This document shows positions 2,157 through 20,528 of a DNA stretch of 21,533 nucleotides, piece by piece (within the stretch, counting starts at the first letter, position 1; every line of letters starts with the position of its first letter). Source of the DNA: a virus (taxonomy: Duplodnaviria > Heunggongvirae > Uroviricota > Caudoviricetes). The notes under the pieces were generated by a model. The model did no database searches and had not been told where the DNA came from. It saw nothing but the letters and a program-made list of their open reading frames with translations. The stretch lies in the IMG/VR virus record IMGVR_UViG_2713897073_000007; one strand, written 5' to 3'. Made by a program: the position numbers and the translations under genes.

Positions 2157-2160
2157 TTTG

Positions 2161-2660: not shown

Positions 2661-2670
2661 CGCGGTTTCC

Positions 2671-2941: not shown

Positions 2942-3001
2942 CAGCCGAAAGGCACCCGCACGTAATCTATCGCTTTTTTGTTACTCCGGCAATTCTGCCT
3001 G

Positions 3002-3262: not shown

Positions 3263-3304
3263 AGCGACCTCCCTTAACGTGGTGCTGCCGCTATTCTAAG
3301 TTGC

Positions 3305-4414
3305 TCACTCTGTTTCCGCTATCCATTCCGGGATTTTTGCCTCAAGCTCAAGCTGCGTGGTAAAGCCGCTGTTATCAATGGTGTGCCCGGCTTTTGCAAT
3401 AATCCAGTCCTGATTATCAATCTCGCTTTTAAATCCTGTTACCGTGCCATGCATTTCGGGGTAGAGCTCTGCACGTCCACGCGCCAGCGTGATGGAGAAT
3501 GATGCGGCTCCGCGTTGTAGTTGCTGCCACTTTGCCGCCGCTGCGCGTCTTGCTGCCTGCTCGTTCTGATAAGTCTTGCGTAACACAAACACATTGCCTT
3601 CCGCGCCTTCCATATAATCACCTTCACGGCTGCTGCTTTTCTCCTTTTTGGGTTTTGGCGGTTTACGGCGTTTCACGCTGACTTTTTTCTTTTTCCCGTA
3701 ATTAAGATCAAGCCAGTAGGCGCGTACCCCCGTATACGCCTCGCGGTCAGCAATGCGGAACTGATGGCGATCGCCGCTGCTGCGTGTAATGGCGAACGAG
3801 GGCAACGGCTGGCCCTGTGCGTTCACGCCACCACCTGGCATGATGAATAACAGATTGCCGCTTTTTACCGTGGTGATTGCACCCAGCATTTCCGCCATGC
3901 GCGTAAGGAAGGACATGTCGCTTTCTTCGGTCTGGTCGGCGTGGTCGATTTCGATATCCATCAGCATTTCGCTGATTTGCGGTTTCAGACCATACCGATG
4001 AGCGATGGCGGATACCACACGCTCAACGGTCACATCATGCCAGGACACCTCACGTTTAACGTTAAATTCATCCCAAAAATCTGCGCTTCTGGCTGAAACA
4101 GTCAGCCTGTCCGGCGGTCCTTCGTGAGCGATTTCATCAACAATGTAAGTGCCTTTTTCTGTCAGCGGTTCTCCCTTCCAGCCAATGAGAACCGTCAGGC
4201 GCGCGCCCCGTGGCGGTAGCTGCAACTGACCATCCGCATCATCCAGCGTGATGGTGAGCTGGTCCGCCTCAAATCCCCGGTTGTCGGTCAGTGACAGGCT
4301 CATCAGGCGCTCTGCCACGCCTGACAGCGTTTTACCCTCCGCGAGAATATCAAAATCCGGCATTTTTACGGGGTCTGTGCCCTGACTGAGCAATTGCATG
4401 GTGGTGTCGGTCAT
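3305..4414 (-). CDS. D: P2 gpD-like tail protein (late control gene D family)
   Basis: ORF-track ORF 3305..4546. Protein has the conserved SLSLTDNRGFEADQL block, a central Lys-rich stretch (KKKKVSVKRRKPPKPKKEK) and C-terminal NSGFTTQLEL typical of gpD. Preferred start is the internal Met of MTDTTMQLLSQ (about 4414), preceded by GGGAGGGAG. Confidence 0.85.
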   Translation of the reverse strand: MTDTTMQLLSQGTDPVKMPDFDILAEGKTLSGVAERLMSLSLTDNRGFEADQLTITLDDADGQLQLPPRGARLTVLIGWKGEPLTEKGTYIVDEIAHEGPPDRLTVSARSADFWDEFNVKREVSWHDVTVERVVSAIAHRYGLKPQISEMLMDIEIDHADQTEESDMSFLTRMAEMLGAITTVKSGNLLFIMPGGGVNAQGQPLPSFAITRSSGDRHQFRIADREAYTGVRAYWLDLNYGKKKKVSVKRRKPPKPKKEKSSSREGDYMEGAEGNVFVLRKTYQNEQAARRAAAAKWQQLQRGAASFSITLARGRAELYPEMHGTVTGFKSEIDNQDWIIAKAGHTIDNSGFTTQLELEAKIPEWIAETE

Positions 4415-4571
4415 CTGCTCCCTCCCTGTGCGGCATGGTCGCATGTGCGTGCGGAGGGGGTTACTGCTTTTTGTTGTCGCCGTGGCGAGAGAACGGCGCA
4501 GGGGTGAGATTACGCGCGTGGTGGGTGATGATTGTTGCCGAATCATTTAACGGATACAAGGGGCTGAAGCT

Positions 4572-5756
4572 ATGAGTGAAACTCGTTTTCATGGTGCCCG
4601 TGTTACGGAAAATACCGACCTGGTAACAGCGATTAACGATGTTGATTCCAGCGTTATCGGTATCGTGGCAACGGCGGATGATGCGGACGCGAAGCTGTTC
4701 CCGCTGAACAAGCCCACACTGCTGACCCGCGTCAATGACGTGCTGGGAAAATGCGGGACAACGGGGACGCTTTATCGTGCGCTTAAGGCCATCGCAGACC
4801 AGGTGAGTACAAAGGTGATCGTCGTTCGCGTGGCTGAACACAAAGAAGAAGACGGAAAAACGCAGGATCAACTGGTTATCGGTGGTTCTGAATCTGACGG
4901 CAGCTATACGGGGATGTATGCGCTGCTTGTTGCAGAGCAGGATGAAAGCATCGGATACCGTCCGCGTATTCTGGCCGCGCCGGAGCTGGACACGGAGGCG
5001 GTAACAAAATCCCTGTGCGTGATTGCGGGTAAACTGCGCGCGTTTGTGTATGCCTCATGTCACGGCTGTAACACGATGGCTGAGGCGATTACCTACCGCC
5101 AGAAATTCAACGAACGTGAGGTGATGCTCTTATGGCCGGACTTCATCGCCTACAACCCGAAAAGTGGCAAAAACGAAACGTTCCCCGCGCCTGCCTATGC
5201 GTGCGGCCTTCGTGCGTACATTGACCATGAGCAGGGTTGGCACAAATCGCTGTCCAACGTTCCGGTTAAAAATGTGCTGGGGATGTCCAGGCATGTGTTC
5301 TGGTCGTTGCAGGCCGAAGACAGTGATGCCAACAGCCTCAACAACAAAGAAATCACGACCATTATTCGTCGCAACGGGTTCCGCTTCTGGGGCAACCGCA
5401 CACCGGAAACGAACGCCTACATCTTTGAGGTGTATACCCGAACCGCACAGGTGCTGGCTGATTCAATTGCGGAAGCGCAGTTTGAAACCATCGATAGTCC
5501 ACTGACGCCTGCGAACGTGAAGGATGTTATCAGTGCCATCAGGGCAAAACTGGATTCACTGGTGACTGCCGGGAAACTGATTGGGGCGTCGTGCTGGTAT
5601 GACGTGGTGGATAACAGCACCACGAATTTACGTCAGGGGCGTGTGCGTATTCGCTACAAATATACGCCCGTTCCTCCGCTGGAAGACATGGAGCTTTACC
5701 AGTCGTTTACTGATGAATTCTTTGGTCCCGCATTTGCGGTGCTGGGAGGTGCCTGA
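4572..5756 (+). CDS. FI: Contractile tail sheath protein (P2 gpFI family)
   Basis: 394 aa; N-terminal region ...ADDADAKLFPLNKPTLLT... aligns with recalled P2 FI (...ASDADAETFPLNKPVLIT...); SD AAGGGG upstream; followed immediately by the tube gene. Confidence 0.9.
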   Translation: MSETRFHGARVTENTDLVTAINDVDSSVIGIVATADDADAKLFPLNKPTLLTRVNDVLGKCGTTGTLYRALKAIADQVSTKVIVVRVAEHKEEDGKTQDQLVIGGSESDGSYTGMYALLVAEQDESIGYRPRILAAPELDTEAVTKSLCVIAGKLRAFVYASCHGCNTMAEAITYRQKFNEREVMLLWPDFIAYNPKSGKNETFPAPAYACGLRAYIDHEQGWHKSLSNVPVKNVLGMSRHVFWSLQAEDSDANSLNNKEITTIIRRNGFRFWGNRTPETNAYIFEVYTRTAQVLADSIAEAQFETIDSPLTPANVKDVISAIRAKLDSLVTAGKLIGASCWYDVVDNSTTNLRQGRVRIRYKYTPVPPLEDMELYQSFTDEFFGPAFAVLGGA

Positions 5757-6268
5757 TGGCTGTACCAAAACATCTTCGCTTTTTTACGCTGTTTGTGGAT
5801 GGTGAAAACGAAGTGGGTAAGGTGACGTCCGTCACCCTGCCTAAACTGACGCGCAAAACCGACAGCTACCGGGGTGGTGGCATGATGGGTGCGGTAAGTA
5901 TTGATCTCGGTCTGGACGACTCCGCGCTTGATGCGAGCTTTGTCATGGGGGGCGCAGTTCGTGAGCTGTTCCTTAAGTATGGCGGCACGATTGACGGCAC
6001 GCTACTGCGTTTTGCGGGTGAATACTACACCGATGCAGAAAGCGACCTGTATGAAGTCGAAATGCGCGGACGCGTGACGGAAATTGATATGGGGGAAGCC
6101 AAACAGGGCGAAGCCACATCACACACTTACGCCATTAAAAACACCTACTACAAGCTGAGTGTTAACGATCGTCCGTTGTGGGAGATTGACCTGCTGAACT
6201 TCATTTACCGGAAGGACGGCAAGGACATTGTGCCCGATCGCATCCGTTCCGCGCTTGGGCTTGGCTGA
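5756..6268 (+). CDS. FII: Tail tube protein (P2 gpFII family)
   Basis: 170 aa; start overlaps the FI stop (TGATG); position and size match FII; N-terminal pattern ...FVDGENEVGKVTSVTLPKLTRKTDSYRGGGM resembles recalled P2 FII. Confidence 0.85.
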   Translation: MAVPKHLRFFTLFVDGENEVGKVTSVTLPKLTRKTDSYRGGGMMGAVSIDLGLDDSALDASFVMGGAVRELFLKYGGTIDGTLLRFAGEYYTDAESDLYEVEMRGRVTEIDMGEAKQGEATSHTYAIKNTYYKLSVNDRPLWEIDLLNFIYRKDGKDIVPDRIRSALGLG

Positions 6269-6322
6269 TAAGTAATATGCAGGCGGCGCAGTGCGTCGCC
6301 TCTGACTGAAAGGAGTTTCCTG

Positions 6323-6688
6323 ATGAAAGAGACGAAAAACATCGATACCGAAAACACGGTAGTTGCTGACACTGTGAAAGAAACCAGTGAGCGTGGCGTA
6401 AAACTTACCCAACCAATTGAGCGAGGCGGCGAAAAAATCACGTATGTGGAGATCACCGGGGCTATTGAGCAGGCTGGATCTCTGCGAGATTTGTCGCTGT
6501 CTGATGTGCTGAATCTGAAAGCGGAATCCATGTTTACGCTGCTGTCACGAGTGACATCACCGCGACTGGATGAAGTGACGATCAAAAAAATGGCATCCCG
6601 TGACTTTATTCAGTTATGTGTGGTTGCCGTAAATTTTTTGAGCGGTGCGGACTCTGGCGGGAAGAACGAACAGGCGACGGAAGCCTGA
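6323..6688 (+). CDS. E: Tail assembly chaperone gpE (zero-frame product)
   Basis: 121-aa ORF between the tube and tape-measure genes; contains the T TTT TTG slippery heptamer in frame; synteny with P2 E. Confidence 0.8.
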   Translation: MKETKNIDTENTVVADTVKETSERGVKLTQPIERGGEKITYVEITGAIEQAGSLRDLSLSDVLNLKAESMFTLLSRVTSPRLDEVTIKKMASRDFIQLCVVAVNFLSGADSGGKNEQATEA

Positions 6689-6852
6689 TCACGGTTGTGT
6701 GCTTTGAGCACATAGAAGACTTTGTGGCAGATATTGCCGTTATTTTTAACTGGTCGCCCGCCGAAATCTTCATGATGACGCCCGGCGAAGTGGTTAGCTG
6801 GCGTGAGCGGGCGGCACTTCGCAGCGGGAATGCAGACAATGAAGACTCTTGA
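6323..6852 (+). CDS. E': gpE+E' fusion product made by programmed -1 ribosomal frameshift at 6634-6640
   Basis: ORF-track frame 6616..6852 is -1 relative to E and is closed by a TGA at 6601-6603, so it can only be entered by slippage downstream of that point. The heptamer T TTT TTG at 6634-6640 is in the correct zero-frame register. The E' frame ends by overlapping the tape-measure start. Confidence 0.7.
6634..6640 (+). other. Slippery heptamer T TTT TTG (programmed -1 frameshift site for E/E')
   Basis: Read directly; E-frame codons AAT TTT TTG (N F L), -1 frame codons TTT TTT GAG (F F E), matching both ORF-track translations (VNFLSGADS and KFFERCGLW). Confidence 0.7.
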
Positions 6853-9646
6853 TATCCGGGTCGCTTTCAGCGCCGTTGACAGGCTGACCCAGCCTGCCGA
6901 AAACGCCCGCCGCCTGATGGGGCAGTTTGGTGACTCCATCCAGCGAACGCAGGGGGCGATCAAAAATCTCGAGCGTCAGGCGCGTTCATTTGAGCGCGCC
7001 CGCGACGCTGTCAGTAAAGCGGATGCGGGTATCGTGAAAGCACGACGCCAGCTTAACGCCCTTAATCAGTTACAACGCACGGGTACAGTGCTCAGCGAAA
7101 AACAACAAAAGCTGATGCAGCAGTTAAGCACCCGGCTTGAACGCCTGAATGAATCGCGCACGCGGGAAATTCAGAAAATGCGGGAGCTTGGCGGAGAGCT
7201 GAAACGCCACGGCATTTCCCTGACAGGCAGCGATAACACCATCCAGCAGGCCATCAGACGCACCGAACAGTACAACAATCAGCTTGAACGCGAACGGCAG
7301 GCGCTTGCGCGTGTAACGCGGGCGCGTGAGCGGTATTCGCGCGCGCAGGAAACAGCGGGAAAACTGAAAACAGGTGGTGCACTGGCAATTGGTGCGGCAG
7401 CGGCGGGCGGCTATGCTGCCGGGCGTTTTTTGCAGCCTGCGATCGGGTTCGGGAAAGAGATGTCCCGCGTTCAGGCACTGACGCGAATCGACCAGAACAG
7501 CCCGCAGTTTAAGGCGCTGCGTGAGCAGGCGTTAAAACTTGGCTCTGAAACGCAGTTCACCGCAGGCGATGCCGCCAGTGGGCAGGCATTTCTGGCAATG
7601 GCTGGCTTCACACCGCAGGCCATTCAGGCTGCGCTTCCCGGCGTGCTGAGCATGGCAACGGCTGGCGGTATGGACCTTGGCGAGACGGCAGATATTGGCT
7701 CAAATATCCTGACGCAGTTCGGCCTCTCCGCTGACCAGATGGACCGGGTCGGTGACACGCTTACAGCAGTGTTTACCCGTACTAACACTGACCTTCGCGC
7801 ACTGGGCGAAACCATGAAATATGCAGGTCCGGTGGCGGGTAAGCTGGGAATATCGCTGGAGCAGGCCGCAGCGATGGCGGGCGTGCTGGCGAATATGGGT
7901 ATCAGAGGGAGTGATGCCGGGACGGCAATGCGTGCCAGCCTGGCTCGTCTGGCATCACCGCCAAAGGCGGCAGCAGAAGCGCTGAAAGAGCTGGGTGTGT
8001 CCGTCTCTGATGCGAACGGCAAAATGCGCCCGATGGAAGATGTGCTGGCCGACCTTTATAAAGCCACCCGTAAATACGGGGAAGTTGACCGGGTATCGTT
8101 CTTTAAGGACATTGCCGGGGAAGAGGCTTTCACGTCGTTTATGGCTCTCGTTGATGCGGCGGGTGACGGCTCCCTGCCCAAACTGAGAAAAGAACTTGAG
8201 GGCGCACGCGGTGAGGCTGAACGCACGGCAAAGGTTATGGCCAATAACCTTGATGGCGACCTGAAATCACTCGGCAGTGCATGGGAAGGGCTGCGTATCC
8301 GCATTGCAGATCTGATTGATGGTCCGCTGCGTTCTGTCACGCAGTGGCTCACGCGGGTGGTCTCAAAGGTGACGGCGCTGGCACAGGCCCATCCGGTACT
8401 GACGCGCCAGTTACTGATAGCAGGCGGTGCGCTGCTGGCAATGACTGCAACGGTTGGCTCGTTGTCGCTGGTTATTGGAGTGCTTCACGGGAAGCTGGCC
8501 ACGTTGCGTCTTGGTTTTTCTCTCCTGACCGGATCAATGAATGCTGTCAGGCTCCTGCCAGCACTATGGGGAATGGTGACGGGTTCCGTTTCGTTACTGG
8601 GGGGCGCTATCGGGGCGCTGTTCAGCCCGGTCGGATTGATTGCTGCTGCGTTTGTGGCTGCGGCAGTTCTCATCTGGAAATACTGGGAACCCATCAAGGC
8701 GTTTTATGCCGGGGTGTTCAGCGGGATTATGGAGCGGCTGGCCCCGTTACGCGAAACCTTTGAACGGTTTGGTCCTGTTTTTGACGCAATCGGAAGCGGG
8801 ATAAGTCAGGTGTTTAACTGGTTTAAATCGTTGCTGTCACCGATGGAGTCCAGCAAGGAAACGCTGGATAAATGTACCAGTGCTGGCGAGATATTCGGTA
8901 ACGTTCTTGGCGGTGCGTTACAGCTTGTTCTGACGCCCGCAAAAATGTTGCTGGATACGCTGGCGTGGATACTTGAAAAACTCGGTGTGCTTCCGGATGA
9001 AGCGGAAAGGGCGAGAAAGAAAATCGAAGACGCACAGCGTGCGGCCATTCTTCAGGACAAGGTTGCTCTGTTTCAGGGAGACATTGCGAAAATCAATCCG
9101 CCGAAGTCTGCGGAAAATGGCAATGGCACCGGAGGTGATAAACCCAAAGACAATAAACCGCTCACAGACAGCAATACCGGTACGCTACGCAGACTCAGCA
9201 AAATTGCTGATAACACAGGTAAGCTGGTTGATGAGACGAAAAAACGTATTGGCCCCGGCGATATTGTCTTTAAGAACCTGCCCCGCGCACTTGCCGTTCG
9301 TGGGGAGTGGCAGGAGCGGAAGATTGTGCAGGTCAGTAAGCCTGCCCCCGCAATTAATATCACACCCGTGGTCCCGGCTCCGCTGCCTCCGGCGCTGGTC
9401 CCTGTTGTTGCGGCCAGCTCCCGCCCGGTGGCGGAGGCCATACGATCTCCAGTGGCATCAGTTCCTGTAACTTCCCGTAACCGGGAGCCTGTTGCCTCCG
9501 GATTTGGTGGTGAAATTCATGTTCATCTGCATAACGTTGTTACGCAGAATCCCCGCGAACTGGCGAAACTGGTCGGTGAAATGGTCAGGGCAGAAATGGA
9601 ACGGCGCGCCCGTGCCGGGCGTGGCAGTTTTTACGATAAAGATTGA
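6803..9646 (+). CDS. T: Tail tape measure protein (P2 gpT family)
   Basis: 947-aa ORF; long N-terminal coiled-coil-like region, central hydrophobic segments (LLIAGGALLAMTATVGSLSLVIGVL...), Pro/Ala-rich C-terminus; located between E/E' and U. True start may be the in-frame ATG at 6830 or 6839, overlapping the E' stop. Confidence 0.9.
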   Translation: MSGRHFAAGMQTMKTLDIRVAFSAVDRLTQPAENARRLMGQFGDSIQRTQGAIKNLERQARSFERARDAVSKADAGIVKARRQLNALNQLQRTGTVLSEKQQKLMQQLSTRLERLNESRTREIQKMRELGGELKRHGISLTGSDNTIQQAIRRTEQYNNQLERERQALARVTRARERYSRAQETAGKLKTGGALAIGAAAAGGYAAGRFLQPAIGFGKEMSRVQALTRIDQNSPQFKALREQALKLGSETQFTAGDAASGQAFLAMAGFTPQAIQAALPGVLSMATAGGMDLGETADIGSNILTQFGLSADQMDRVGDTLTAVFTRTNTDLRALGETMKYAGPVAGKLGISLEQAAAMAGVLANMGIRGSDAGTAMRASLARLASPPKAAAEALKELGVSVSDANGKMRPMEDVLADLYKATRKYGEVDRVSFFKDIAGEEAFTSFMALVDAAGDGSLPKLRKELEGARGEAERTAKVMANNLDGDLKSLGSAWEGLRIRIADLIDGPLRSVTQWLTRVVSKVTALAQAHPVLTRQLLIAGGALLAMTATVGSLSLVIGVLHGKLATLRLGFSLLTGSMNAVRLLPALWGMVTGSVSLLGGAIGALFSPVGLIAAAFVAAAVLIWKYWEPIKAFYAGVFSGIMERLAPLRETFERFGPVFDAIGSGISQVFNWFKSLLSPMESSKETLDKCTSAGEIFGNVLGGALQLVLTPAKMLLDTLAWILEKLGVLPDEAERARKKIEDAQRAAILQDKVALFQGDIAKINPPKSAENGNGTGGDKPKDNKPLTDSNTGTLRRLSKIADNTGKLVDETKKRIGPGDIVFKNLPRALAVRGEWQERKIVQVSKPAPAINITPVVPAPLPPALVPVVAASSRPVAEAIRSPVASVPVTSRNREPVASGFGGEIHVHLHNVVTQNPRELAKLVGEMVRAEMERRARAGRGSFYDKD

Positions 9647-9652
9647 GGAGTC

Positions 9653-10147
9653 ATGGCCATGATGATGATCTACGGCATGTTTGTTTTTGAGCTGCGCACG
9701 CTGCCGCATCAGCAGTTACAGCAAAACAAAAGCTGGCGGCATGTGAAAAATGAACGCGTTAACCGTTCAGCAAGCTGGCAGTATATCGGTGCAGGTGATG
9801 ATCGCATCGTTCTTTCTGGTGTGCTTTATCCTGAAATTACAGGTGGCGAAGTGTCGCTGTCGCTGCTGACCACGCAGGCGTATACAGGACGACCCTGGCC
9901 TTTGATTGATGGCGTCGGGCAGATTTACGGCATGTATGTCCTGACCGGAACGAACACGACCCGTTCCGAGTTTGATCGCTACGGTAAGGCGAAAAAGATA
10001 GAATTTTCACTGACCCTTGAACGCTGTGATGAGGATTTGCGGGAGCGCCTGCAATCCTCATCGTTCAGCGATATGCTGTCCGGCTTCAAAGATAAAGTGA
10101 CATCATCCCTTAACAGCGCGGCCAGTTCAGTTAAAGGGCTGTTCTGA
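9653..10147 (+). CDS. U: Tail protein gpU
   Basis: 164 aa directly after T; N-terminal FVFELRTLPHQQLQQNKSWRH and LSGVLYPEITGG resemble recalled P2 U. Confidence 0.8.
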   Translation: MAMMMIYGMFVFELRTLPHQQLQQNKSWRHVKNERVNRSASWQYIGAGDDRIVLSGVLYPEITGGEVSLSLLTTQAYTGRPWPLIDGVGQIYGMYVLTGTNTTRSEFDRYGKAKKIEFSLTLERCDEDLRERLQSSSFSDMLSGFKDKVTSSLNSAASSVKGLF

Positions 10148-10159
10148 TTTAATGCTGGC

Positions 10160-10191
10160 CACTCATACCTGGTAATAAGTGGCCAGTCTTA
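10160..10191. repeat. 9-bp inverted repeat CTGGCCACT - 14 nt - AGTGGCCAG immediately 3' of U, at the transition from GC-normal phage DNA to AT-rich cargo
   Basis: Read from sequence; could be a terminator for the late tail operon or a remnant of a recombination site. Confidence 0.3.
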
Positions 10192-10309
10192 ACACTCACC
10201 ATTTGATTGCACCCGCGTTAACGATTTGTTACTGGGTATCAGACATGCTGGATAGCCAGTAGAAACATACCATTAAAATTATTACAATAATTGGTCACAT
10301 GATTATCTT

Positions 10310-10795
10310 ATGCTGAATAATAGAGATATGAATATTAATGAACTTAAAGACTGTATTCACTATGAAGTAATCGGTAGCGAGCGTCCTTTCTCCTGGCGAA
10401 AGGCAATTGTTCGCGCAATAAAACATAGAAGACTTCGTTATTTATTTTGGTGGCGCATAGCCAAATACCTTTTTGATAAAGGCGGATACTGCCGGAAGAT
10501 TGCGGGGAAAATAGAACGTTTCATTCTTGATAAATATAATGTAACAGTCCCTTTAACTGTAAATATAGGGAAAGGCTTTGATATTTCTTATCTCAACAGT
10601 GTTGTTATCGGTCACAAAGTAACAATCGGTGAAAATTGTTCAATAAAACCGGGGGTAACTATTGGGCTACGTGGTGATTTTAATGATATGGATATTGTTA
10701 TAGGACATAATGTGACCATTGGTTGTAATGCCACCATTCTTGGTGGCAAAGTGCGTATAGGAAACAATGTCACAATAGGTGCTCATGCATTGGTA
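10310..10795 (+). pseudogene. 3'-truncated hexapeptide-repeat (left-handed beta-helix) acyltransferase, AT-rich cargo gene
   Basis: Tandem hexapeptide repeats VTIGENCSIKPGVTIG / IVIGHNVTIGCNATILGGKVRIGNNVTIGAHALV; the last 23 aa of the ORF (TTTFKNFKESLTITSFFRIVAVK) are the reverse-strand reading of the tail-fibre fragment, so the gene is cut at about 10795. Confidence 0.6.
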
Positions 10796-11290
10796 ACCAC
10801 CACCTTCAAGAACTTCAAGGAGTCCCTGACCATAACTTCCTTCTTCCGGATAGTTGCGGTCAAATGAAGCGATTGAGCCACTACTGTTTCGCCATAAACC
10901 AAGATGCTCTGCGCCTCCGAGCGTGTTCAGGTCAATGGTTGTGCTCAGGGGGCGTGTTGCAGACTGAACCTGACGCCAGTAACTCCACGGACCGTCTGAA
11001 CCATTCCATGTGCCAGAAAGGTTGCGCATATAAACATTGCCTGTTCTGGTGGTGTAACGCTGCATTCCTGCAAAATTACCGCCATTGAATACCTCCAGTA
11101 CACCGACTGCACCGTCTTCAGGGAAATTTTTAGCAGCCGTCGCGTTAGTGGATGTAGCTTTAGACCAGACGCCAAGATAAGCCTTAACGGGACCAAATGT
11201 ATTCAAGTCAGCATCAAGCGGCATTTCGCCATTGTTTTTCATAAACGTCAGGCTGGTAACGCCAACATTGTCCAGAAAAGCGCCCTTATC
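10796..11290 (-). pseudogene. Internal fragment of a phage tail fibre gene (gpH-like), truncated at both ends
   Basis: ORF-track ORF 10667..11242 with its frame open upstream to about 11290. Gly/Asn/Thr/Ser-rich fibre-like sequence (GVLEVFNGGNFAGMQRYTTRTGNVYMRNLSGTWNGSDGPWSYW...GQGLLEVLEGGGY). The final 40 aa are an antisense read of the acyltransferase DNA. Family assignment is by composition and synteny only. Confidence 0.45.
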
Positions 11291-11835
11291 TCCACGCGTT
11301 GCACACCGTGCACATGCAGTGCGGCAGCAATGGCGGACAACGCCACGTCCTGACCGATAAGCCCCTGCTCAGCCAGCCACTTCCTGAACGACGATTCAGC
11401 CGCAGCCAGAATAGGTTCGGATTCCGGGCCGGGATAAAAGTACAGTTTTGCATTCAGCCGCCATGTCACGATTCTGGCGCTCTGTACGGTCAGGCGGTCG
11501 GCCACCGGGCGGGTATCCTCTGCATTCAGAACGGCACGAACGGTATTAAGCAACGCCTCCGTTGCTGTGCCGTCGCCTTCAGTGGACAGGATGGAAACCG
11601 TCACACAGGCCGGAGACGGGCTGATGGCCCGCGCATCACGCACCAGACCGCTGGCGCTGCGTGCAAAATACTCGTATGCACCTGACGGGCCAGCAACACT
11701 CAGGCCGTCGTACGCCCGCTGCGCCCGCAGTCTCAGCGAGGTGTCGCTCTCCATCACCGCGTCGGTGGTATCCGTTGCCGGAGTGATAACCAGGCGCTTT
11801 GTGTTCATATTGCCCGCGAGGTTGTCCAGGTCTGT
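11248..11835 (-). pseudogene. J: Baseplate protein gpJ fragment lacking the N-terminal third and probably the C-terminal end
   Basis: ORF 11248..11886; the segment TKRLVITPATDTTDAVMESDTSLRLRAQRAYDGLSVAGPSGAYEY...SPSPACVTVSILS...RPVADRLTVQSA...YFYPGPESEPI...LHVHGVQRVEI matches recalled P2 J residues from about 100 to 270. The first 17 codons of the ORF are an out-of-frame read of capsid-gene DNA. Confidence 0.65.
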
Positions 11836-12463
11836 CATCCAGCAGGGATGAGCGCGCGTCCTGTACCAGTGCATCAGCGTTCGCATACTTACCCGCGTGC
11901 GCCACTGTGTTGTCCATGTTGCGGGAAGTCAGCGTCACGTCATTCATTACGCGTTCACTGGCATCGGTTCTGATGTGCTCCAGCCAGCCCACGTTAACGT
12001 CCTGAAGCAGCTTGTTGGTGCTGAAATTGGATTTTTCCGCGTGTGATGTGCCGTTAAAGCCGATCATGATGCGGTCAAGCGCCACCTGCCGGGCAATCTG
12101 TGTGCTGATGCGCGACTGAAAATCGCTGTGAGCCGCCCAGGCATCAAGCTTCGGGTATGAAATAAACGTGTCGTAGTTCACCTGTTCACACTGGTACTGA
12201 CGAGCCTTCATATCGACAGCGTTAATCGGATTACGGCGATCTGTGCCGTCATAACTGGTATTCGTGCGCGCAATCGGCCCGGTGGTGTCCAGGAGAACTT
12301 TTTCGCCTTTCTGGTCAGTTACACCGATTACATTAATTCTTTTCGTAAATTCGGTACTTTCCTTTGAAGCGTTTTCAAAACGCTGTTGTACCGATGGATT
12401 GACGGTAAATCGCGATACCAGCGCAGAAACCGGGATATTGTTAAGCGACGCCTGCTGCGTCAT
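11836..12463 (-). pseudogene. N: Major capsid protein gpN fragment (N-terminal about 210 aa)
   Basis: ORF 11636..12463; FTVNPSVQQ...RINVIGVTDQKGEKV...YQCEQVNYDTFISYPKLDAWA...IMIGFNG...LLQDVNVGWLEHIR...ADALVQDA matches recalled P2 N N-terminal region. Homology stops near 11836, after which the frame reads J-fragment DNA. Confidence 0.65.
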
Positions 12464-12508
12464 GTAGCAGCCCAGCTTGTTACGGGCATTAATTACTCAG
12501 GGGGAGCA

Positions 12509-13765
12509 ATGATTCAGGACGCTTTTGTGCGCCAGCGTGCGCGGCAACTTTACTGGCAGGGTTATCCGCCCGCAGAAATATCACGTCTGATGGGAATAAA
12601 CCCGAACACGATTTATGCGTGGAAAAAACGCGACCAGTGGGATGAAACGCCCCCCGTGCAGCGTGTCACGCAGTCCATCGATGCGCGCCTCATCCAGCTT
12701 ACTGAAAAACAGAATAAAACAGGCGGTGACTTTAAGGAAATAGACCTGCTGACCCGGCAGCTTAAAAAGCTGCATGATGGCCAGCCGGATGTGATGGCCG
12801 CAGGAAAGAAAGGCCGGGCGAAAAAACTTAAAAATCATTTCACGCCGGAACAGATTGCCGCACTGCGGGAAAAAATCATCAGCAGGCTGGAGTGGCATCA
12901 GCGGGGCTGGTTTGACTCCCTGACACTTTGCAGGGAAGCCGGGATACGTAACAGGATGATCCTGAAATCCCGACAGATTGGGGCGACCTGGTATTTTGCA
13001 CAGGAAGCTCTGCTGATGGCGCTGCGTGACGATGTGGCGCAACCTTACCAGCGTAACCAGATTTTTTTGTCTGCGTCGCGTCGTCAGGCGTTCCAGTTTA
13101 AAAGCATTATTCAGAAGGTCGCGGCTGAAGTTGATGTGGAGCTGAAAGGGGGCGATAAAATCATCCTCTCCAACGGCGCAGAGCTGCATTTTCTCGGCAC
13201 TTCTGCTGCGTCGGCACAGTCCTATACGGGCAATTTTTATTTTGATGAATTTTTCTGGGTCAGTCGCTTTGCTGAACTGCGCAAGGTGGCTGGCGCTATG
13301 GCAACCCTCAGCGGACTGCGGCGCACCTACTTCTCCACGCCATCCACCGAAACGCACGAGGCGTACGCCTACTGGAACGGCGACCGCTGGAACGAGAAAA
13401 AGGCCTCGCATAAACGCCAGCGTTTTTCTGTGGACTGGAAAACGCTGCATAACGGGCTTATCTGCCCTGACCGGACTTGGCGGCAAATTGTCACGCTGGA
13501 AGATGTGGTTAATCACGGCTGGAAACACACCGATATCGACGAAATTCGTGATGAAAACACCGAAGACGAGTTCCTCAATCTCTATATGTGTGAGTTTGTC
13601 CGCGAAGGGGAATCGGCATTTAACCTGAATATCCTGATTGGCTGCGGTGTTGACGGATACGACGACTGGAAAGACTGGAAACCTTTTGCTCCCCGCCCGA
13701 TGGGGAATCGTCCGGTATGGATTGGGTATGACGCAAACGGCAGCAGTGGCAACGGCGACACCGTG
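12509..13765 (+). pseudogene. P: Terminase ATPase (large) subunit, P2 gpP family, 3'-truncated
   Basis: ORF 12386..13840; preferred start MIQDAF at 12509 with SD GGGGGAG; Walker-A-like KSRQIGATWYFAQEA; the last roughly 25 aa (RMPYQRRPSRFSFLRTAAKNELTR) are an antisense read of the gpA fragment. Family size is about 590 aa, so roughly 170 C-terminal residues are missing. Confidence 0.7.
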
Positions 13766-15042
13766 CGGATGCCATACCAGCGCAGGCCGTCGCGGTTCAG
13801 TTTCTTGCGGACCGCCGCAAAAAACGAGTTAACCAGGTAATCGCTGGAGTCGCGCATAGTGGCCCCGTTCCATTTGGGATTCGGATGACCGTTCTCCGTT
13901 GTTGCGTGGTATTTTGACGGGCAGGTGACAGTCAGAAACACCGCTCTGTCGCCACGGGCTTCGGCCAGAAGTTCCAGCCCCTTCATGGTGGCCATCATTT
14001 CTGCCTTACGGTGAACCGGGTTACTTACTCCCGCGTAATACACTGTCTCAAGATCAATCGTGAACCCGTCTTCGTTTTCCAGCATGAAACTTTTCAGGAA
14101 ATCGCGTGTTTTCTCGCGCTGTGCGCGAAACTCGCTTAACGCATCCTGGCTCAGATAGGGCGATGTTTTTCTGGAAACCAGACAGGCGGCGCGGAGTTGT
14201 TCTTCTCTCCACTCGCAACGTAACAGCCACAGTTTGCGTTTCCACCATTCCGCACAGGTCAGGCGAAGGATTGCGCCCGGCAGCAGCTCCGTGTCTGGTT
14301 CGTTCCTCCGGCCTTTGTCTGTTGTCAGTGCGTCATAATGCGGAGGCATGGCGTGCAGGTGTAACGCCATGCGGGCCAGCATCTGATACGCCTTCAGCGT
14401 TACATCCATGGTCAGCTCGCCATCAGTCGCACCAAAGCCATCGCAGAGTTTTTCGAAGGTGCTGCTGAACATCGCCGCCGTCATGGTGGCCAGCGTCTGT
14501 ATCTGGTGTTTGTTGAGCTGCGGCAGGTAAAGCAAATCGTCCAGGCGTTCGCGTCCGGCAAGGGAGCGATAACCCGGTGTCAGCCAGTGTCCGTCAGTGC
14601 GATCCAGACGTTCGAATATTTTGCGCAGGGTTCCGCGTGCATAGCGTTCTGCCTGCCAGCTCTTTTTGCCTTTCCGGCGATCGACTTCCTGTTTTTTGCG
14701 CAGGAAGGAGAGGTGGCGAATAAGCGGATCGCGCAGATAGGACGGCAGCAGGCGCAGCGAGGCCATGGCTTCATCCACCGCGCCGCGTGCCTGTCTTCTG
14801 GCGTCTCCTGCCAGCGTGATGGTTTTGTCCTGTTTTTCCTGTGCGTCCAGGCTTTTATTAATCAGGTTGCCCAGTGGCGTGGCAGAGAACGCCGCATCAG
14901 CCTTTTCCTGTCGGCGCTCGTTCTCTGCCTGGTAGGCATCCAGCCAGGAGGAAAGCGCGGATTCAGGTGCGGGGATCCCCGTTCCTTCACGCCCCACTGC
15001 GTGGCGCGGTTGTTGCCAGTCCCTGATGTACTCTGTCGTCAT
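13759..15042 (-). pseudogene. A: Replication initiation protein gpA family (rolling-circle initiator), 3'-truncated after about 428 aa
   Basis: ORF 13582..15042 directly downstream of the early operon; sequence up to ...GLRWYGIRTV is protein-like, the following 58 aa are Pro/Ser-rich antisense of terminase DNA. P2 A is about 760 aa. Convergent with the P fragment. Confidence 0.65.
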
Positions 15043-15048
15043 ACTGAT

Positions 15049-15414
15049 TTACTGCGTCATACCGTTCAGGGTGTCACGGCAAACGGCAGCCAGCCGCTGA
15101 ATTTCCAGCACGGTGTCTTCTGTGTCGGCATAGCGATGTGTGATGCGGATGCTGTCGGCAATCACATCGACGATTGCAGAGGATGGGCGCTGGTAAATGC
15201 CAATAACGGACGGAGTGCCACCTTCAATGCGGTAAAGCCTGTAATTTCCCTCGTGGCTGTCAATCATGTAGCGACCATCAATAACAATCTTTCCGTCAGC
15301 GAGCTGCGGTACAGGCAGGGATTTCAGGTACATGTCATAACGTTCACGCACGCGAACGGCAAGATCACGCTCTGTGTTGAGCAGGTATTCAAGAAAGTCG
15401 TTGGCGAGAATCAT
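15049..15414 (-). CDS. Hypothetical early-operon protein (121 aa), immediately upstream of the A fragment
   Basis: ORF-track ORF; position corresponds to the orf83-like slot before gene A in P2-family early operons; no recognisable motif. Confidence 0.5.
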   Translation of the reverse strand: MILANDFLEYLLNTERDLAVRVRERYDMYLKSLPVPQLADGKIVIDGRYMIDSHEGNYRLYRIEGGTPSVIGIYQRPSSAIVDVIADSIRITHRYADTEDTVLEIQRLAAVCRDTLNGMTQ

Positions 15415-15486
15415 TGCGGCAATCCTCTTGTTACAGATGTGCGAAGGCCTCCTGCCGCAAGGTGCAGGAAAGGCCCGGAACAGGAA

Positions 15487-15717
15487 TTAATGGAGTTTGT
15501 TTTGCTGCTGGATGAGCTGCTGAAGCTCGCGCAGATCATCCGCCAGATAACTGAAAACAGCGGATGAGTAGAGGTTTGAAAGTTCGCAGCTACGCTCATG
15601 CAGCATATTGATGTGCATGATTTTAGCGACGCGGAATGCGCGGGAAAGTCTGCGGTTGATTTCAGTCTGGATGTGACGACGCTCCGCGATAGCGCGGTGC
15701 TGTTTGCGGTTTGCCAT
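15487..15717 (-). CDS. Hypothetical small basic protein (76 aa)
   Basis: ORF-track ORF; Arg/Lys-rich N-terminus (MANRKQHRAIAERRHIQTEINRRLSRAFR) suggests nucleic-acid binding; function unassigned. Confidence 0.4.
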   Translation of the reverse strand: MANRKQHRAIAERRHIQTEINRRLSRAFRVAKIMHINMLHERSCELSNLYSSAVFSYLADDLRELQQLIQQQNKLH

Positions 15718-15896
15718 GGTGTGGCCTCTTTGGTTGTAAGTTTTGAAAACTCACCATCCAGAGCTGCGAAACTGTGGGTGGCGAGACGTACGGGGTTCGC
15801 AGTACCGGCAACCAAAGAACCCGGCCCGACCGAAGTCGGCCCCGTACGCCCCGCCATAATTCTGACGCGAAAAAAACGTGGCAATACAGTACGCAC

Positions 15897-15917
15897 AAAA
15901 AAACCGCTGGCGCGGTT
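15897..15917 (-). terminator. Hairpin ACCGC-NNNN-GCGGT followed by a T7 run on the minus strand
   Basis: Read from sequence (plus strand shows A7 then ACCGCTGGCGCGGTT); lies in the 367-bp non-coding gap between the SPFH module and the 76-aa gene. Confidence 0.4.
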
Positions 15918-16053
15918 GTGCGCTTTGGTTGTCAGCAGGCTGCGAAACCCGGCACCCGTTTTATGAGGTGCAGCGAAAATGTAACCTGACTGATTGCGGC
16001 ATGGCAAGCGGTTTTTTTGTGAGAACGGCATACTAAAAAATCCTGATACTGCT

Positions 16054-16078
16054 CCGGCCAGCGGTTTGCACTGGCCGG
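16054..16078 (-). terminator. 8-bp inverted repeat CCGGCCAG - 9 nt - CTGGCCGG starting 7 nt after the SPFH lipoprotein stop
   Basis: Read from sequence; a T6 run follows on the minus strand only after a 13-nt spacer, so intrinsic-terminator function is uncertain. Confidence 0.35.
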
Positions 16079-16084
16079 GTGTCA

Positions 16085-16915
16085 TTACTTCACGGGAACG
16101 AACGGAACAGCGGTGTTACTGGTCATGTATTGCGGCAGCGTGCCGTTCCATTTGTTGATTGCTTCCAGCTCCATAACGCCGGGATTCTGGCGCAGAGCTT
16201 CGCCGCGTAAACGAATGGCGTCGGCTTCAGCCTGGGCTTTTGTGCGAATGGCATCGGCCTGTCCGGCAGCTTCTGCGCGCAACATGTTGGCTTCTGCTTC
16301 GCGTTGCTTGACTTCCTGTTCGCGTTGCAGGGTTTTCTGGTTTGCCGTGACTTTGGCGTTAATGCTGTCGATAACGGTTGGCGGATATTCCGGTTTACCG
16401 ACATAAGAGAGGCTCATGACCTGAATACCGATGGGGGTCATCTCTTCCTGAATATCTTTAAGTGCTGAATCCAGCAGTTCAGACTTACCACCGTCGATAA
16501 ACTTATCGGTGGTCATTTTGCTGGCCAGTCGGTTGAGTGCATCGGCGATCTTCTGGCGCAGGTCAGTGTCGGTAATGTCGTCCACGCCTTTGCGGTAGGT
16601 CTGAAACACCGTGGTAACTTTGGATGGATCAACTTTGTAGGCCACGCCGATGTGATAGCCGATGGTTGTGCCGTCACTCATCTGGAAGTTGAACGGCTCA
16701 TCGTAACTCTTCATTTGTTTGAAGGTCGGGAAGATGTAAACCTCTGTATTCCAGCCTGTCCAGTAGCGGCCAACGCCAACCACTTCACCGACGCCTTTGT
16801 CGTCGCCCAGTTTGTTGACTTTGATGCCCACATTACCTGGCTCAACGCGATCGCAACCAACCAGCAGGATGGCGGCAAAAAGCGGGAGAATCTGAAAGAG
16901 TCTGAATTTCTTCAT
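16085..16915 (-). CDS. SPFH/band-7 (stomatin-prohibitin-like) domain lipoprotein
   Basis: 276 aa; signal peptide with lipobox (LLVGC); central band-7-like region; C-terminal Ala/Glu/Gln-rich coiled coil (QREQEVKQREAEANMLRAEAAGQADAIRTKAQAEADAIRLRGEALRQN). Start overlaps the upstream gene stop (ATGA). Confidence 0.75.
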   Translation of the reverse strand: MKKFRLFQILPLFAAILLVGCDRVEPGNVGIKVNKLGDDKGVGEVVGVGRYWTGWNTEVYIFPTFKQMKSYDEPFNFQMSDGTTIGYHIGVAYKVDPSKVTTVFQTYRKGVDDITDTDLRQKIADALNRLASKMTTDKFIDGGKSELLDSALKDIQEEMTPIGIQVMSLSYVGKPEYPPTVIDSINAKVTANQKTLQREQEVKQREAEANMLRAEAAGQADAIRTKAQAEADAIRLRGEALRQNPGVMELEAINKWNGTLPQYMTSNTAVPFVPVK

Positions 16916-17115
16916 TGTTTGATTTCCTTGATGTACTTACTGAAAAGGCGAACAACGCCTGCCGGGTACAGCATGGCAATGAAAATTCCCAGCAATACCA
17001 GGAAGGAGCTGTCTGATGAAATCATTCGGGGGAGTAGTCCTGCATACAGAATGAGAGAGACGAGGACGCATACCAGCGCCCACATGTATGCGCGAAACCA
17101 GGTCTTTTTGTTCAT
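16912..17115 (-). CDS. Small membrane protein (67 aa, two predicted transmembrane helices), translationally coupled to the SPFH lipoprotein
   Basis: Hydrophobic segments WALVCVLVSLILYAGLL and FLVLLGIFIAMLYPAGVV; 4-nt overlap with the downstream start. Confidence 0.6.
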   Translation of the reverse strand: MNKKTWFRAYMWALVCVLVSLILYAGLLPRMISSDSSFLVLLGIFIAMLYPAGVVRLFSKYIKEIKQ

Positions 17116-17126
17116 ATCGCGGTCCT

Positions 17127-17426
17127 TTACTGGTTAAGGAAAAAATCGAAAACGTTGTCGATGCGTTGCAGCGGCTCCTGCTGCATTGCTTCCGGCGTTT
17201 CTGATTCACCTGGTGACTCCAGCGTCGCGCAAAAATCCTTGATTTCATGATGGAGCGTCAGACGAATGGCAGGAGCCATGGTTCTGGCGTGCTCCAGCTC
17301 ATCCAGCAGTGCCAGCACGGCAGATGGCGAGAGCATTGCGCGAAACGCCAGTAATTTTTGATGCGTTGCCATTCGTTGCAGGTCAGTCGCCAGTTCGCGT
17401 AATTCCTGGTGGTTGATGGCGCTCAT
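17127..17426 (-). CDS. Hypothetical early-operon protein (99 aa, acidic C-terminus)
   Basis: ORF-track ORF; ATGA overlap with the upstream gene; no recognisable motif. Confidence 0.5.
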   Translation of the reverse strand: MSAINHQELRELATDLQRMATHQKLLAFRAMLSPSAVLALLDELEHARTMAPAIRLTLHHEIKDFCATLESPGESETPEAMQQEPLQRIDNVFDFFLNQ

Positions 17427-17689
17427 GCTCTGGCTTCCTTCAGTAGCAGGTTAAACATGTGAGTAAGTGGATTGCTACACCCGAACGGCATCGGGTTTAC
17501 GTGGTAAGAAGCCTGGCCTCCTGCTTTGCGAGCGCGACCACCTGTGCTGCGGTTTGTTCTGATGACTAAGCCGCCGCGCCAGAGTCGGCGTAACTCAGCA
17601 TTGATGGCTGTGGTTGGGGTATTCAGTGCTGCGGCGATTTCTCCGCCGCTACAACCCGGATGGGTAGCGATGTAGTCCAGAATGGTCAT
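17423..17689 (-). CDS. Small winged-helix-like DNA-binding protein (88 aa)
   Basis: MTILDYIATHPGCSGGEIAAALNTPTTAINAELRRLWRGGLVIR resembles a helix-turn-helix/wing pattern; coupled overlaps on both sides. Confidence 0.5.
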   Translation of the reverse strand: MTILDYIATHPGCSGGEIAAALNTPTTAINAELRRLWRGGLVIRTNRSTGGRARKAGGQASYHVNPMPFGCSNPLTHMFNLLLKEARA

Positions 17690-17889
17690 CTGCGTGACTC
17701 CTGTACCTGTCGGATAAGGTTCACCCGCACCACATTCGTGGCGCAGAAGTAAGTGCCGTCAGTGAGATAGATGTGATGTGCATCCTTTTCCGAACGATGT
17801 TTGTCGATAGTGGTAATCAGTCGTTCGTCGACCTCGTATTCGCGGTCTCTGGAGGTGAAGCGAACGACAGGAAAATGCTTAATTGCCAT
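17686..17889 (-). CDS. Hypothetical early-operon protein (67 aa)
   Basis: ORF-track ORF; overlaps neighbouring genes by 1-4 nt. Confidence 0.45.
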   Translation of the reverse strand: MAIKHFPVVRFTSRDREYEVDERLITTIDKHRSEKDAHHIYLTDGTYFCATNVVRVNLIRQVQESRR

Positions 17890-18206
17890 TACACCCTCTT
17901 GGCTTTATGTCTGTATTTGAGCTTTTCTATTTCTTCTTTTTGTTCTTTTAATGTTCTTATGGCTGTGAAAACATTAAAGCCCATAAAATGTGCTCTGTTC
18001 GCTAATGTAATACTGGCACCTTTGTTAGCTATATCATCTTCAATATCAGTGAAATACTGACTGATTTCTTTTAGTGCGGCGCAAAGCTTTGCGAGATCTC
18101 GCCCCCTGTCAAAATATGCATCCTTCAGTATTTTTTGATTTGTCCTGAGCATGCTAACCTCGTGTTTATATATATGGATACCTCCGCGAGTGCGGATTGT
18201 TTTCAT
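17889..18206 (-). CDS. Hypothetical protein (105 aa) encoded in an AT-rich insert within the early operon
   Basis: ORF-track ORF; local base composition is markedly more AT-rich than the flanking phage genes; charged, Lys/Glu-rich C-terminus. Confidence 0.5.
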   Translation of the reverse strand: MKTIRTRGGIHIYKHEVSMLRTNQKILKDAYFDRGRDLAKLCAALKEISQYFTDIEDDIANKGASITLANRAHFMGFNVFTAIRTLKEQKEEIEKLKYRHKAKRV

Positions 18207-18241
18207 GTTTTCTTATTTAATCGTGTGTTTTATTTGTGCTG

Positions 18242-18355
18242 TTATTCTTCAGTGAAAAAACGCTCAATCTTTTTTACTGAATGAATAATTCGCATAATCC
18301 CAATAGCGCAGGCCACCGAAATAATCAGAACAAGCCATGAGATAAATATACTCAT
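18242..18355 (-). CDS. Small hydrophobic peptide (37 aa, MSIFISWLVLIISVACAIGIMRIIHSVKKIERFFTEE), not in the ORF track
   Basis: Hand translation; ATG overlaps the stop of the upstream 81-aa gene in an ATGA arrangement; one predicted transmembrane helix followed by a basic/acidic tail; AT-rich. Confidence 0.4.
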   Translation of the reverse strand: MSIFISWLVLIISVACAIGIMRIIHSVKKIERFFTEE

Positions 18356-18597
18356 GCGATATTCCCCAGCTTATACGGTTCAATATGTTCCCCGCATTCT
18401 GCGGCACAGATCAGCTCGGAAAGTTCGTTAAGTGCATCCAGATCATCAGCGTAAAAAGCCACGTCATACAGACTTCGGATTGCTCTGGTCAATGAGTCAC
18501 GGGCCGCACGTTCAGCATGAGCGCCTGATGCACTTAAGCGAAAATAAAAACGCTCAAGTGCTTTGTTAATGAGAGTTTTATATTCTTTGCCCATCAC
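18352..18597 (-). CDS. Hypothetical early-operon protein (81 aa)
   Basis: ORF-track ORF; no recognisable motif. Confidence 0.5.
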   Translation of the reverse strand: MMGKEYKTLINKALERFYFRLSASGAHAERAARDSLTRAIRSLYDVAFYADDLDALNELSELICAAECGEHIEPYKLGNIA

Positions 18598-18605
18598 AAC
18601 GCCCT

Positions 18606-18893
18606 TTAATCTGCTTTCTGTATTTCAGCTTCTGAATCCATACAAATAATTTCGATATAGGGTTCATCGCCATTAACCTGGCGTGCCTTTTCAGCTTCGC
18701 TAATGATTTCTCGTACGGTCTGGTACGGAAGTTCCACAAGCAGCCGTGTGCCGTTCAGATAAATGTAAGTGGCTTCGGCGGCTCCGTTTTTACCCGCCGG
18801 AGTCACTCCATCAATAGCGGATGCGCGTAATAACAGTTCACCGCGAAAATCAATAAAACGGATAAATACACCTTGTGCATGCTCTTTGGTCAT
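18606..18893 (-). CDS. Hypothetical early-operon protein (about 95 aa)
   Basis: ORF-track ORF 18606..19007; preferred start at the Met of MTKEHAQGVF, which avoids overlap with the upstream gene. Confidence 0.5.
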   Translation of the reverse strand: MTKEHAQGVFIRFIDFRGELLLRASAIDGVTPAGKNGAAEATYIYLNGTRLLVELPYQTVREIISEAEKARQVNGDEPYIEIICMDSEAEIQKAD

Positions 18894-18903
18894 AAAGCAC
18901 CTG

Positions 18904-19245
18904 TTATAAATCAGCCTGTTTAATAAAACTTTGCCCGCGAAGCAGACGATCAACCGTGCGAAGTGCTTCGTATAATGTGAAATCCTGCCCGAACTGATTG
19001 TCGCCACTGCTTAGAGCAAAAATGCGGTTTCCGGTAAACGGATTGCGTGGGCATTTGTGGATCACGATTCCAGCTTTCTCAATCAGCCAGGCATGCTCGC
19101 CGATTTGTTTTACTGGGTAGCCATCCGGCGTTGCGTGTGTATCACTCAGGCTGTAGCGGATGTTGCTGCGTGATGCACTGGTAGCAAAACGGTTAGCGTG
19201 GCGTTCTGCACCATTGCGAAAGCGTGAATTACGTTGCTGTTTCAT
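18904..19245 (-). CDS. Hypothetical early-operon protein (113 aa)
   Basis: ORF-track ORF; basic N-terminus; function unassigned. Confidence 0.5.
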   Translation of the reverse strand: MKQQRNSRFRNGAERHANRFATSASRSNIRYSLSDTHATPDGYPVKQIGEHAWLIEKAGIVIHKCPRNPFTGNRIFALSSGDNQFGQDFTLYEALRTVDRLLRGQSFIKQADL

Positions 19246-19404
19246 GTTAAAGACTCTGTACAGATTTAATTATTCCGGCATAGAGGCCGAACTCAAAATA
19301 TTTGCGATTAAATCGTATCGCATTGTTTTCACGTTTTGCGGACTGCTGGTTCATTTTCGTTTGCCTCCGCACATGAGAATTGCGCCGCTTAAGAGGTAAC
19401 CGAA

Positions 19405-19429
19405 GTTAATTGATAGTATTACAATTAAC
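19405..19429. promoter_or_regulatory. Perfect palindrome GTTAATTG - 9 nt - CAATTAAC in the 250-bp gap inside the early operon (candidate operator or protein-binding site)
   Basis: Read from sequence; AT-rich; about 160 nt upstream of the 113-aa gene start on the minus strand. Confidence 0.35.
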
Positions 19430-19497
19430 ATAAGGTCCAATTTGTCCATGCCACACATAATTACCCTCATTGCAGTAGTTGTGGGTTGTCAGGTTTC

Positions 19498-19704
19498 TCA
19501 CCCGATAAACCAGATAACAAACGCTATAAACATCGCCCCAATAGCTGCCGGGAAAAGTCCTTTGGTATAAGCGGCGATATATTCAATGCTGAGTTCAATA
19601 AAGCGTTCTTCATGTCCCGTTAACTTGCGAAACAAATAGATCTCTATTACGCCTATCTCAATAAAAACAAGGGTCAGAATGGCGCTGATGATATGGCTGG
19701 TCAT
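19498..19704 (-). CDS. Small membrane protein (68 aa, two predicted transmembrane helices), second gene of the early operon
   Basis: Hydrophobic segments IISAILTLVFIEIGVIEIYLF and FPAAIGAMFIAFVIWFIG; starts 6 nt after the cox stop. Confidence 0.55.
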   Translation of the reverse strand: MTSHIISAILTLVFIEIGVIEIYLFRKLTGHEERFIELSIEYIAAYTKGLFPAAIGAMFIAFVIWFIG

Positions 19705-19710
19705 TTATGA

Positions 19711-19998
19711 CTAAAGTCCCAGCCACAACAACCATGCGTCGCGGCGTTCTTTCGGTTGCTCAAAAAACGCTTTGCGCATGCCTTCGTTAAATGCTGGCAG
19801 ATATACCCAGTTTTCTGATGCACGCGTCTTCACTGAACCTGGTTTCACAAAGTCAATCGTTGGTAACTTTGCAGCGTCAATCATGGTTCTGACGGTTGAT
19901 TCTTTGCGACCAATCATCTTGGCAAATAGTTGATATGGCACCGCTTCAAGTGGATATGGTGCTACCTGAATGAACCCCTCAAGCTCTGATTCGCTCAT
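19711..19998 (-). CDS. cox: Cox-family excisionase / early-promoter repressor
   Basis: ...WVYLPAFNEGMRKAFFEQPKERRDAWLLWLGL matches recalled P2 Cox (...YWVYLPAWNNGLKLAYESRPKEIRDGWLMWLGL); divergent from the C repressor gene; SD GGGAGA 8 nt upstream. Confidence 0.85.
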   Translation of the reverse strand: MSESELEGFIQVAPYPLEAVPYQLFAKMIGRKESTVRTMIDAAKLPTIDFVKPGSVKTRASENWVYLPAFNEGMRKAFFEQPKERRDAWLLWLGL

Positions 19999-20432: not shown

Positions 20433-20528
20433 GGCCAGAAAACTGGTTAGACCTGCTTTTTGTCTGGTCTGATTATTGCTGGAAAGAGGCTGGAGAAATT
20501 GTAGAGCGGTTCATTGGAGGGCTTCGTA

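Follow-up and report, generated by a model that had tools for sequence, protein, structure and literature searches.

We analysed a stretch of 21,533 nt (hereafter the window) in which, read along the plus strand, flk and a few small genes are followed by hok, by ogr and D on the minus strand, by FI, FII, E, E', T and U on the plus strand, and by a hexapeptide acetyltransferase gene, also on the plus strand. To the right of the acetyltransferase come the minus-strand segment of gene fragments, then the terminase gene P, truncated and on the plus strand, then replication gene A, likewise truncated, and after it the early genes, cox, C and int. The RefSeq annotation of a 27.1-kb copy in strain F5656C1 (L002) places the prophage between flk and pdxB, with the integrase at the right end. 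As the reference for alignment by local BLAST we used a near-intact 37.3-kb copy at the same site in E. coli FDAARGOS_1077 (NZ_CP068155.1; L004). The features retained in and around the fragment segment are as follows.

10328..10867, plus strand: putative serine acetyltransferase cargo gene (Pfam Hexapep, E = 7.9e-13) with a chimeric 3' end
10793..11291, minus strand: 'H', internal piece of the tail-fibre gene (nt 654-1152 of 2658; codons 218-384 of 885)
11286..11836, minus strand: 'J', internal piece of the baseplate gene (nt 258-808 of 897; codons 86-270 of 298)
11835..12491, minus strand: N', piece of the major capsid gene (nt 21-677 of 1053; codons 7-226 of 350)
12490..13760, plus strand: P', truncated large-terminase gene (19-nt leader plus codons 1-418 of 583; nt 1-1252 of 1752)

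The N piece matched the Pfam family Phage_cap_P2 (E = 2.6e-69, profile positions 7-211 of 327) and the J piece matched Baseplate_J (E = 1.6e-19, profile positions 112-255 of 255); a Pfam search of the H piece gave no match. RefSeq names the H piece in L002 'pyocin knob domain-containing protein, missing N-terminus and C-terminus' and flags P' there as 'missing C-terminus', and in sister genomes both the H and the J pieces are already labelled incomplete genes. The acetyltransferase gene keeps its native codons 1-156 of 181 at 10328-10795 (nt 1-468 of 546) and then runs through 23 foreign codons, the antisense of the H fragment, to a stop. The intact 546-nt gene is present at L004 10628-11173. 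The same 179-aa product (WP_244443963.1) is annotated by RefSeq in L002 and in the copy of strain 99-3165 (L005), and the exact chimeric protein was found in 19 public contigs.

The element is a defective, P88-like (Xuanwuvirus, Peduoviridae) remnant of a P2-family prophage at the flk/pdxB site. Membership of the P2 family is given by the capsid and baseplate Pfam matches on the fragment ORFs, and the order and strands of the genes in L004 and L003 are colinear with annotated P88. DNA identity to P88, P884B11 and related phages is 92.4-93.7% over N' and P' only, which for a remnant is not a genus-level whole-genome figure. The prophage is integrated and has an integrase, and genes for particle formation are missing: Q, O, M, L, X, the lysis genes, R, S, V, W, I and G are gone from the window, N, J, H, P and A are truncated, and the portal, scaffold, small terminase, head completion and most baseplate and tail-fibre assembly functions are wanting. 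With these losses, the prophage is predicted to be unable to make particles or to lyse the cell.

Several features outside the fragment segment were also noted. The tail sheath-tube-tape measure block FI-U (window 4572-10147) lies on the plus strand, opposite to J and H (minus strand), whereas in canonical P2 the tail block is not on the strand opposite to the other late genes. P88 natively shows the same opposite-strand layout, so we rejected a disabling inversion and consider the arrangement native to Xuanwuvirus rather than a rearrangement. D and ogr occupy about 3002-4105 on the minus strand. At the position of D (about 3305-4105, minus strand), RefSeq annotates an 801-nt 'VgrG/Pvc8 family' CDS and a 93-nt opposite-strand pseudogene, and for the same spot a second gene caller gives a complete Phage_GPD product of 369 aa (L006 978-2087), D of P88 having 366 aa; D may be intact, with only its annotated start differing. 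In the early region adjoining the truncated A, two Rfam matches scored above the gathering threshold, a C4 antisense RNA at 15774-15861 (minus strand, 87.1 bits) and the Hfq-binding sRNA isrK at 15897-15971 (minus strand, 65.9 bits). An Rfam scan within the fragment segment found nothing.

Alignment to L004 resolved the window into six colinear blocks of 99.9-100% identity with five clean deletions between them.

Block 1: window 1-10795 = L004 301-11095
Block 2 (H piece): window 10793-11291 = L004 13260-13758, 100% over 499 nt
Block 3 (J piece): window 11286-11836 = L004 15031-15581, 100% over 551 nt
Block 4 (N piece): window 11835-12491 = L004 21137-21793, 100% over 657 nt
Block 5: window 12490-13760 = L004 22809-24079
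Block 6: window 13759-21533 = L004 29805-37579

Complete identity over 499, 551 and 657 nt is well past chance. The deleted lengths close exactly (21533 + 15746 = 37279, the length of L004 301-37579), and about 15.7 kb is gone. By alignment, missing DNA is retained in three sister prophages, L004, L002 and the copy in strain L1_E925 (L001). With the gene content of each deleted interval read from the RefSeq annotation of L004, the five junctions, numbered along the window, are these.

Junction 1, acetyltransferase/'H', 10793-10795, shared GTA: 2167 bp removed (last 78 nt of the acetyltransferase gene, the whole of G for tail-fibre assembly, last 1506 nt of H)
Junction 2, 'H'/'J', 11286-11291, shared TTATCT: 1278 bp removed (last 89 nt of J, the whole of I, first 653 nt of H)
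Junction 3, 'J'/'N', 11835-11836, shared TC: 5557 bp removed (first 257 nt of J; W, V, S, R, lysC, lysB, endolysin, holin, X, L and M; last 376 nt of N)
Junction 4, 'N'/P, 12490-12491, shared TA: 1017 bp removed (first 20 nt of N, the whole scaffold gene O, 135 nt of the 154-nt O-P intergenic region)
Junction 5, P'/A', 13759-13760, shared CA: 5727 bp removed (3' part of P, portal gene Q, the cos-side cargo comprising DUF3800 and parM with its partner, 3' part of A)

The original prediction, made for 10796-12463, described a chain of N', 'J' and 'H' fragments joined at deletion junctions and ending in acyltransferase DNA, and the alignments to L004, L002 and L001 bear this out. Its breakpoints, near 11836, 11288 and 10795, were right to within 0-3 nt of the L004 block ends, and the genes it expected to be lost (M to W; I together with 5' sequence of H; 3' sequence of H together with G) are those annotated in the deleted intervals of L004. 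Its expectation that several kilobases had gone at each junction suits the 2167-bp and 5557-bp deletions but not the H/J deletion, which removed 1.28 kb. The right-hand limit of the segment has to be moved: N homology reaches 12491, the ATG at 12463 corresponds to N codon 17, and the 5' end and start codon of N have been cut away as well. Junctions 4 and 5 sit just beyond this segment, to its right. The pairwise placement of breakpoints and search for microhomology that had been proposed gave nucleotide-level positions, with 2-6 nt shared at every junction. No continuous, ungapped alignment of the segment was found, since no phage record or E. coli genome covers at least 80% of 10300-12900 in one place.

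Tail-fibre regions of the P2 family are mosaic, and the H piece has an identity pattern of its own to different phages: 97.5% to another Peduovirus tail-fibre gene, 91.8%, and 80.6% to the P2 tail-fibre gene at the DNA level. Both observations would suit fragments that had been gained piecemeal by recombination among phages. A single prophage at the same site, L004, however, contains all three fragments at 100% identity, in unchanged order and orientation and with the missing DNA present between them. The H piece is likewise 100% identical to L001 12001-12499. Given that L004 is colinear and holds the missing DNA, we rejected piecemeal acquisition, to which we assign next to no probability, in favor of loss from an intact parent.

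Long ORFs span every junction, with the reading phase switching each time. At junction 3, N codon position 1 meets J position 3, and at junction 2, J position 2 meets H position 3; the 275-aa ORF at 11636-12463, for example, consists of N codons 17-225 followed by 66 out-of-frame codons from J DNA. The earlier statement that the frame continues across the junctions therefore holds in that ORFs do cross, but they are out of phase with the downstream gene. There are no in-frame fusions because the frame shifts at every junction, and, all junctions being out of frame, the N, J and H fragments are pseudogenes.

We considered whether the chimeric ORFs (N' with out-of-frame J, 275 aa; J'-H, 212 aa; H' with antisense acetyltransferase, 191 aa) might have been domesticated as new genes. 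An open frame over every junction would favor this, as would the calling of 191-aa and 281-aa ORFs by gene callers in sister genomes. The frame shifts, though, turn the tails into nonsense sequence, and the 275-aa and 212-aa products were found in no other assembly represented in an exact-product index; the clade members are 100% identical, so they offer no conservation signal to assess. Expression signals argue in the same direction. The late promoters of P2 lie in the O-P intergenic region and upstream of V, and according to the L004 annotation the DNA removed includes most of the former and the DNA upstream of V. A consensus scan found no sigma-70-like promoter on the minus strand upstream of the fragments, and promoter and terminator matches over 10000-13000 were no more numerous than in shuffled controls. 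We consequently regard domestication as extremely unlikely, and a functional-fusion reading was rejected on the frame shifts and the colinearity with L004. The P2-type late-promoter dyad TGT-N12-ACA had no exact match in the O-P, upstream-of-V or D-FI intergenic regions of L004, and we therefore propose no particular promoter motif. The N, J and H fragments, judged from their sequence, are predicted to be functionless. In annotation terms, three ORFs (10667-11242, 11248-11886 and 11636-12463) are chimeric pseudogenes, and the acetyltransferase C-terminus is foreign.

Comparison of the junction flanks with L004 revealed 3, 6, 2, 2 and 2 nt of microhomology at junctions 1-5, with both copies present in the parent and one copy left at each junction. 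At 5/5 junctions we found intervening DNA in the parent together with a short identity of the two ends, of which a single copy was kept. In a random-joining model, the probability that all five junctions share at least 2 nt is 9e-5, and the probability of a sum of at least 15 nt is 1e-4. A 2-nt microhomology is expected by chance about 10% of the time and alone is weak evidence on mechanism. Neither the flanks, on inspection, nor the L002 and L004 annotations showed an insertion sequence, att-like site or long repeat at the breakpoints; no similarity extends past the microhomology, and the U-A interval of L002 and of L004 is free of annotated insertion sequences. Elsewhere at the locus, sister genomes carry an IS1 within the acetyltransferase gene (L001) and an IS30 near D (FMU073332), with insertion-sequence records at L001 8592-9914 and L009 662-1813 (H46, H53, H47). 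These are further independent decay events at the locus.

Short microhomology with one copy kept is what RecA-independent illegitimate recombination classically leaves behind. An ancestor closely resembling the FDAARGOS_1077 copy lost five internal pieces, and the deletions may have arisen by this kind of recombination, either replication slippage or microhomology-mediated end joining, as the shortness of the homology suggests. Taken as one explanation, it is highly probable that the fragments are leftovers of N, J and H produced by ordinary microhomology-mediated deletions during prophage decay.

We surveyed 5426 complete E. coli genomes and, besides these, an exact-product gene index and genome and metagenome contigs. 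With the whole window as query, ten records among the 5426 genomes were covered completely at 100% identity, always in at least two pieces spread over more DNA than the window. Junctions 1 and 2, junction 4 and junction 5 co-occur in the same 9 of the 5426 genomes and are absent from the others. Named among the nine are FMU073332, an ETEC isolate (PMC5323613), F5656C1, 99-3165, E66, E70, E143, E272 and E1624. The carrier is a diarrhoeal E. coli lineage, at least one of the nine genomes being ETEC.

Across the related copies the decay is stepwise. L004 has none of the five deletions and L002 has four, the window being L002 minus 5557 bp with no other mismatch over 21.5 kb. L005 has the same four deletions plus an independent 1407-bp N'/'L deletion, 28 nt away and with a 9-nt overlap, and L001 shows an independent N'/'V deletion. 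In N, the breakpoints fall at nt 677 in the window (joined to J), nt 649 in 99-3165 (joined to L; L005 16313-16321) and nt 281 in L1_E925 (joined to V; L001 15295-15296). The capsid gene has therefore suffered three independent deletions in related strains. The window differs from L004 by six substitutions in 21.5 kb, so deletions were about as frequent as point changes. With at least six separate microhomology deletions against about six substitutions over 21.5 kb in one lineage, the locus illustrates bacterial deletional bias. The L004 copy of gene A (28707-31088) is annotated without its C-terminus, about 339 nt of L001 (18065-18403) being missing from L004; because of this annotation, L004 was probably already defective before the late-gene deletions.

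No genome with only a subset of junctions 1, 2, 4 and 5 was found among the 5426, although a genome with a single deletion, 1 or 2, would reach at least 80% query coverage; beyond the nine, none did. The joint occurrence of all four junctions in the same nine genomes, together with the short time span implied by six substitutions relative to L004, could reflect a single complex event, for instance serial template switching where a fork had stalled or the repair of a region that had shattered. On the other hand, the sampling was restricted to complete genomes, later deletions in the clade came singly (junction 3 of the window and N'/'L of 99-3165), and the blocks keep their original order and orientation, without the inserted or inverted snippets that template switching often leaves. 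We think such an event unlikely; if true, it would alter the tempo of the decay and not the nature of the finding.

In contrast to the shared junctions, the N'/'J junction was found in 0 of the 5426 complete genomes. Exact products of the chimeric ORF, in three versions, had no match in the gene index, and a 27-nt string across junction 3 had none in scans of genome and metagenome contigs. The junction is thus private to the window among the sequences searched, and the window is its one witness. This absence from every searched set, and the 100% identity of window and L002 over 21.5 kb apart from the 5557-bp gap, would be compatible with an assembly error or with a deletion in a laboratory stock or in sequence handling at 11835/11836, the other junctions being real. 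Assemblers, though, collapse at repeats, and the ends at junction 3 share just 2 nt; moreover, the independent deletions of the same type in N of 99-3165 and L1_E925 mean that another private deletion is to be expected, and most E. coli assemblies are drafts, outside the searched set of complete genomes. An artefact is very unlikely in our judgment, and as a genuine deletion the N'/'J junction could serve as a strain marker in this E. coli clade.

We also noted that two lineages share the exact nucleotide at which P is cut (P nt 1252, at CA) but not the partner joined to it, which is A' in the clade of the window (13759-13760) and parM, at its 5' end, in the L1_E925 clade (L001 17840-17841), the corresponding L004 coordinates being 24079, 28503 and 29805. 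The P/A' and P/parM junctions each occur in nine complete genomes, in different sets. Such a shared breakpoint has a chance probability of about 0.002 per comparison and about 0.07 after multiple comparisons, and, allowing for the comparisons made, is marginally surprising; it could be due to chance, a nested second deletion or a hot spot. That the P breakpoint and the three N deletions mark non-random deletion in P88-like prophages, at hot spots directed by sequence or structure, seems to us distinctly unlikely.

Among known systems, P88 (NC_026014.1) has the same left part as the window family, int-C-cox-...-A-cargo-Q-P, followed by O-N-M-L-X-holin-lysis-R-S-V-W-J-I-H-G, and its remainder is likewise shared, with cargo, U-T-E'-E-FII-FI on the opposite strand and then D-hok. 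The N and P DNA of the window is 92.7% identical to that of P88 and up to 93.7% identical to that of related phages. Unlike P88, the window is without Q, O, M, L, X, the lysis genes, R, S, V, W, I and G, has pieces only of N, J, H, P and A, and carries an acetyltransferase gene in the place that an invertible tail-fibre segment and a DNA invertase occupy in P88. The flk-pdxB remnant of the nine genomes is closer still: its DNA is 100% identical and junctions 1, 2, 4 and 5 are identical to those of the window, but the 5557 bp from J to N are retained, and 99-3165 has its own 1407-bp N'/'L deletion.

The feature is of an ordinary, already-understood kind, deletion scars in a decaying prophage; its value is as a nucleotide-resolved case of prophage whittling, and alone it carries little weight. 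E. coli K-12 is not known to carry a prophage at the flk-pdxB site. The cryptic prophages of K-12, of which nine elements have been studied (PMC3105296), resemble the window in being integrated remnants without their structural and lysis genes; they form no particles, as is predicted for the element in the window. Unlike those elements, the locus described here allows the decay to be traced stepwise through near-intact and intermediate copies in close relatives.
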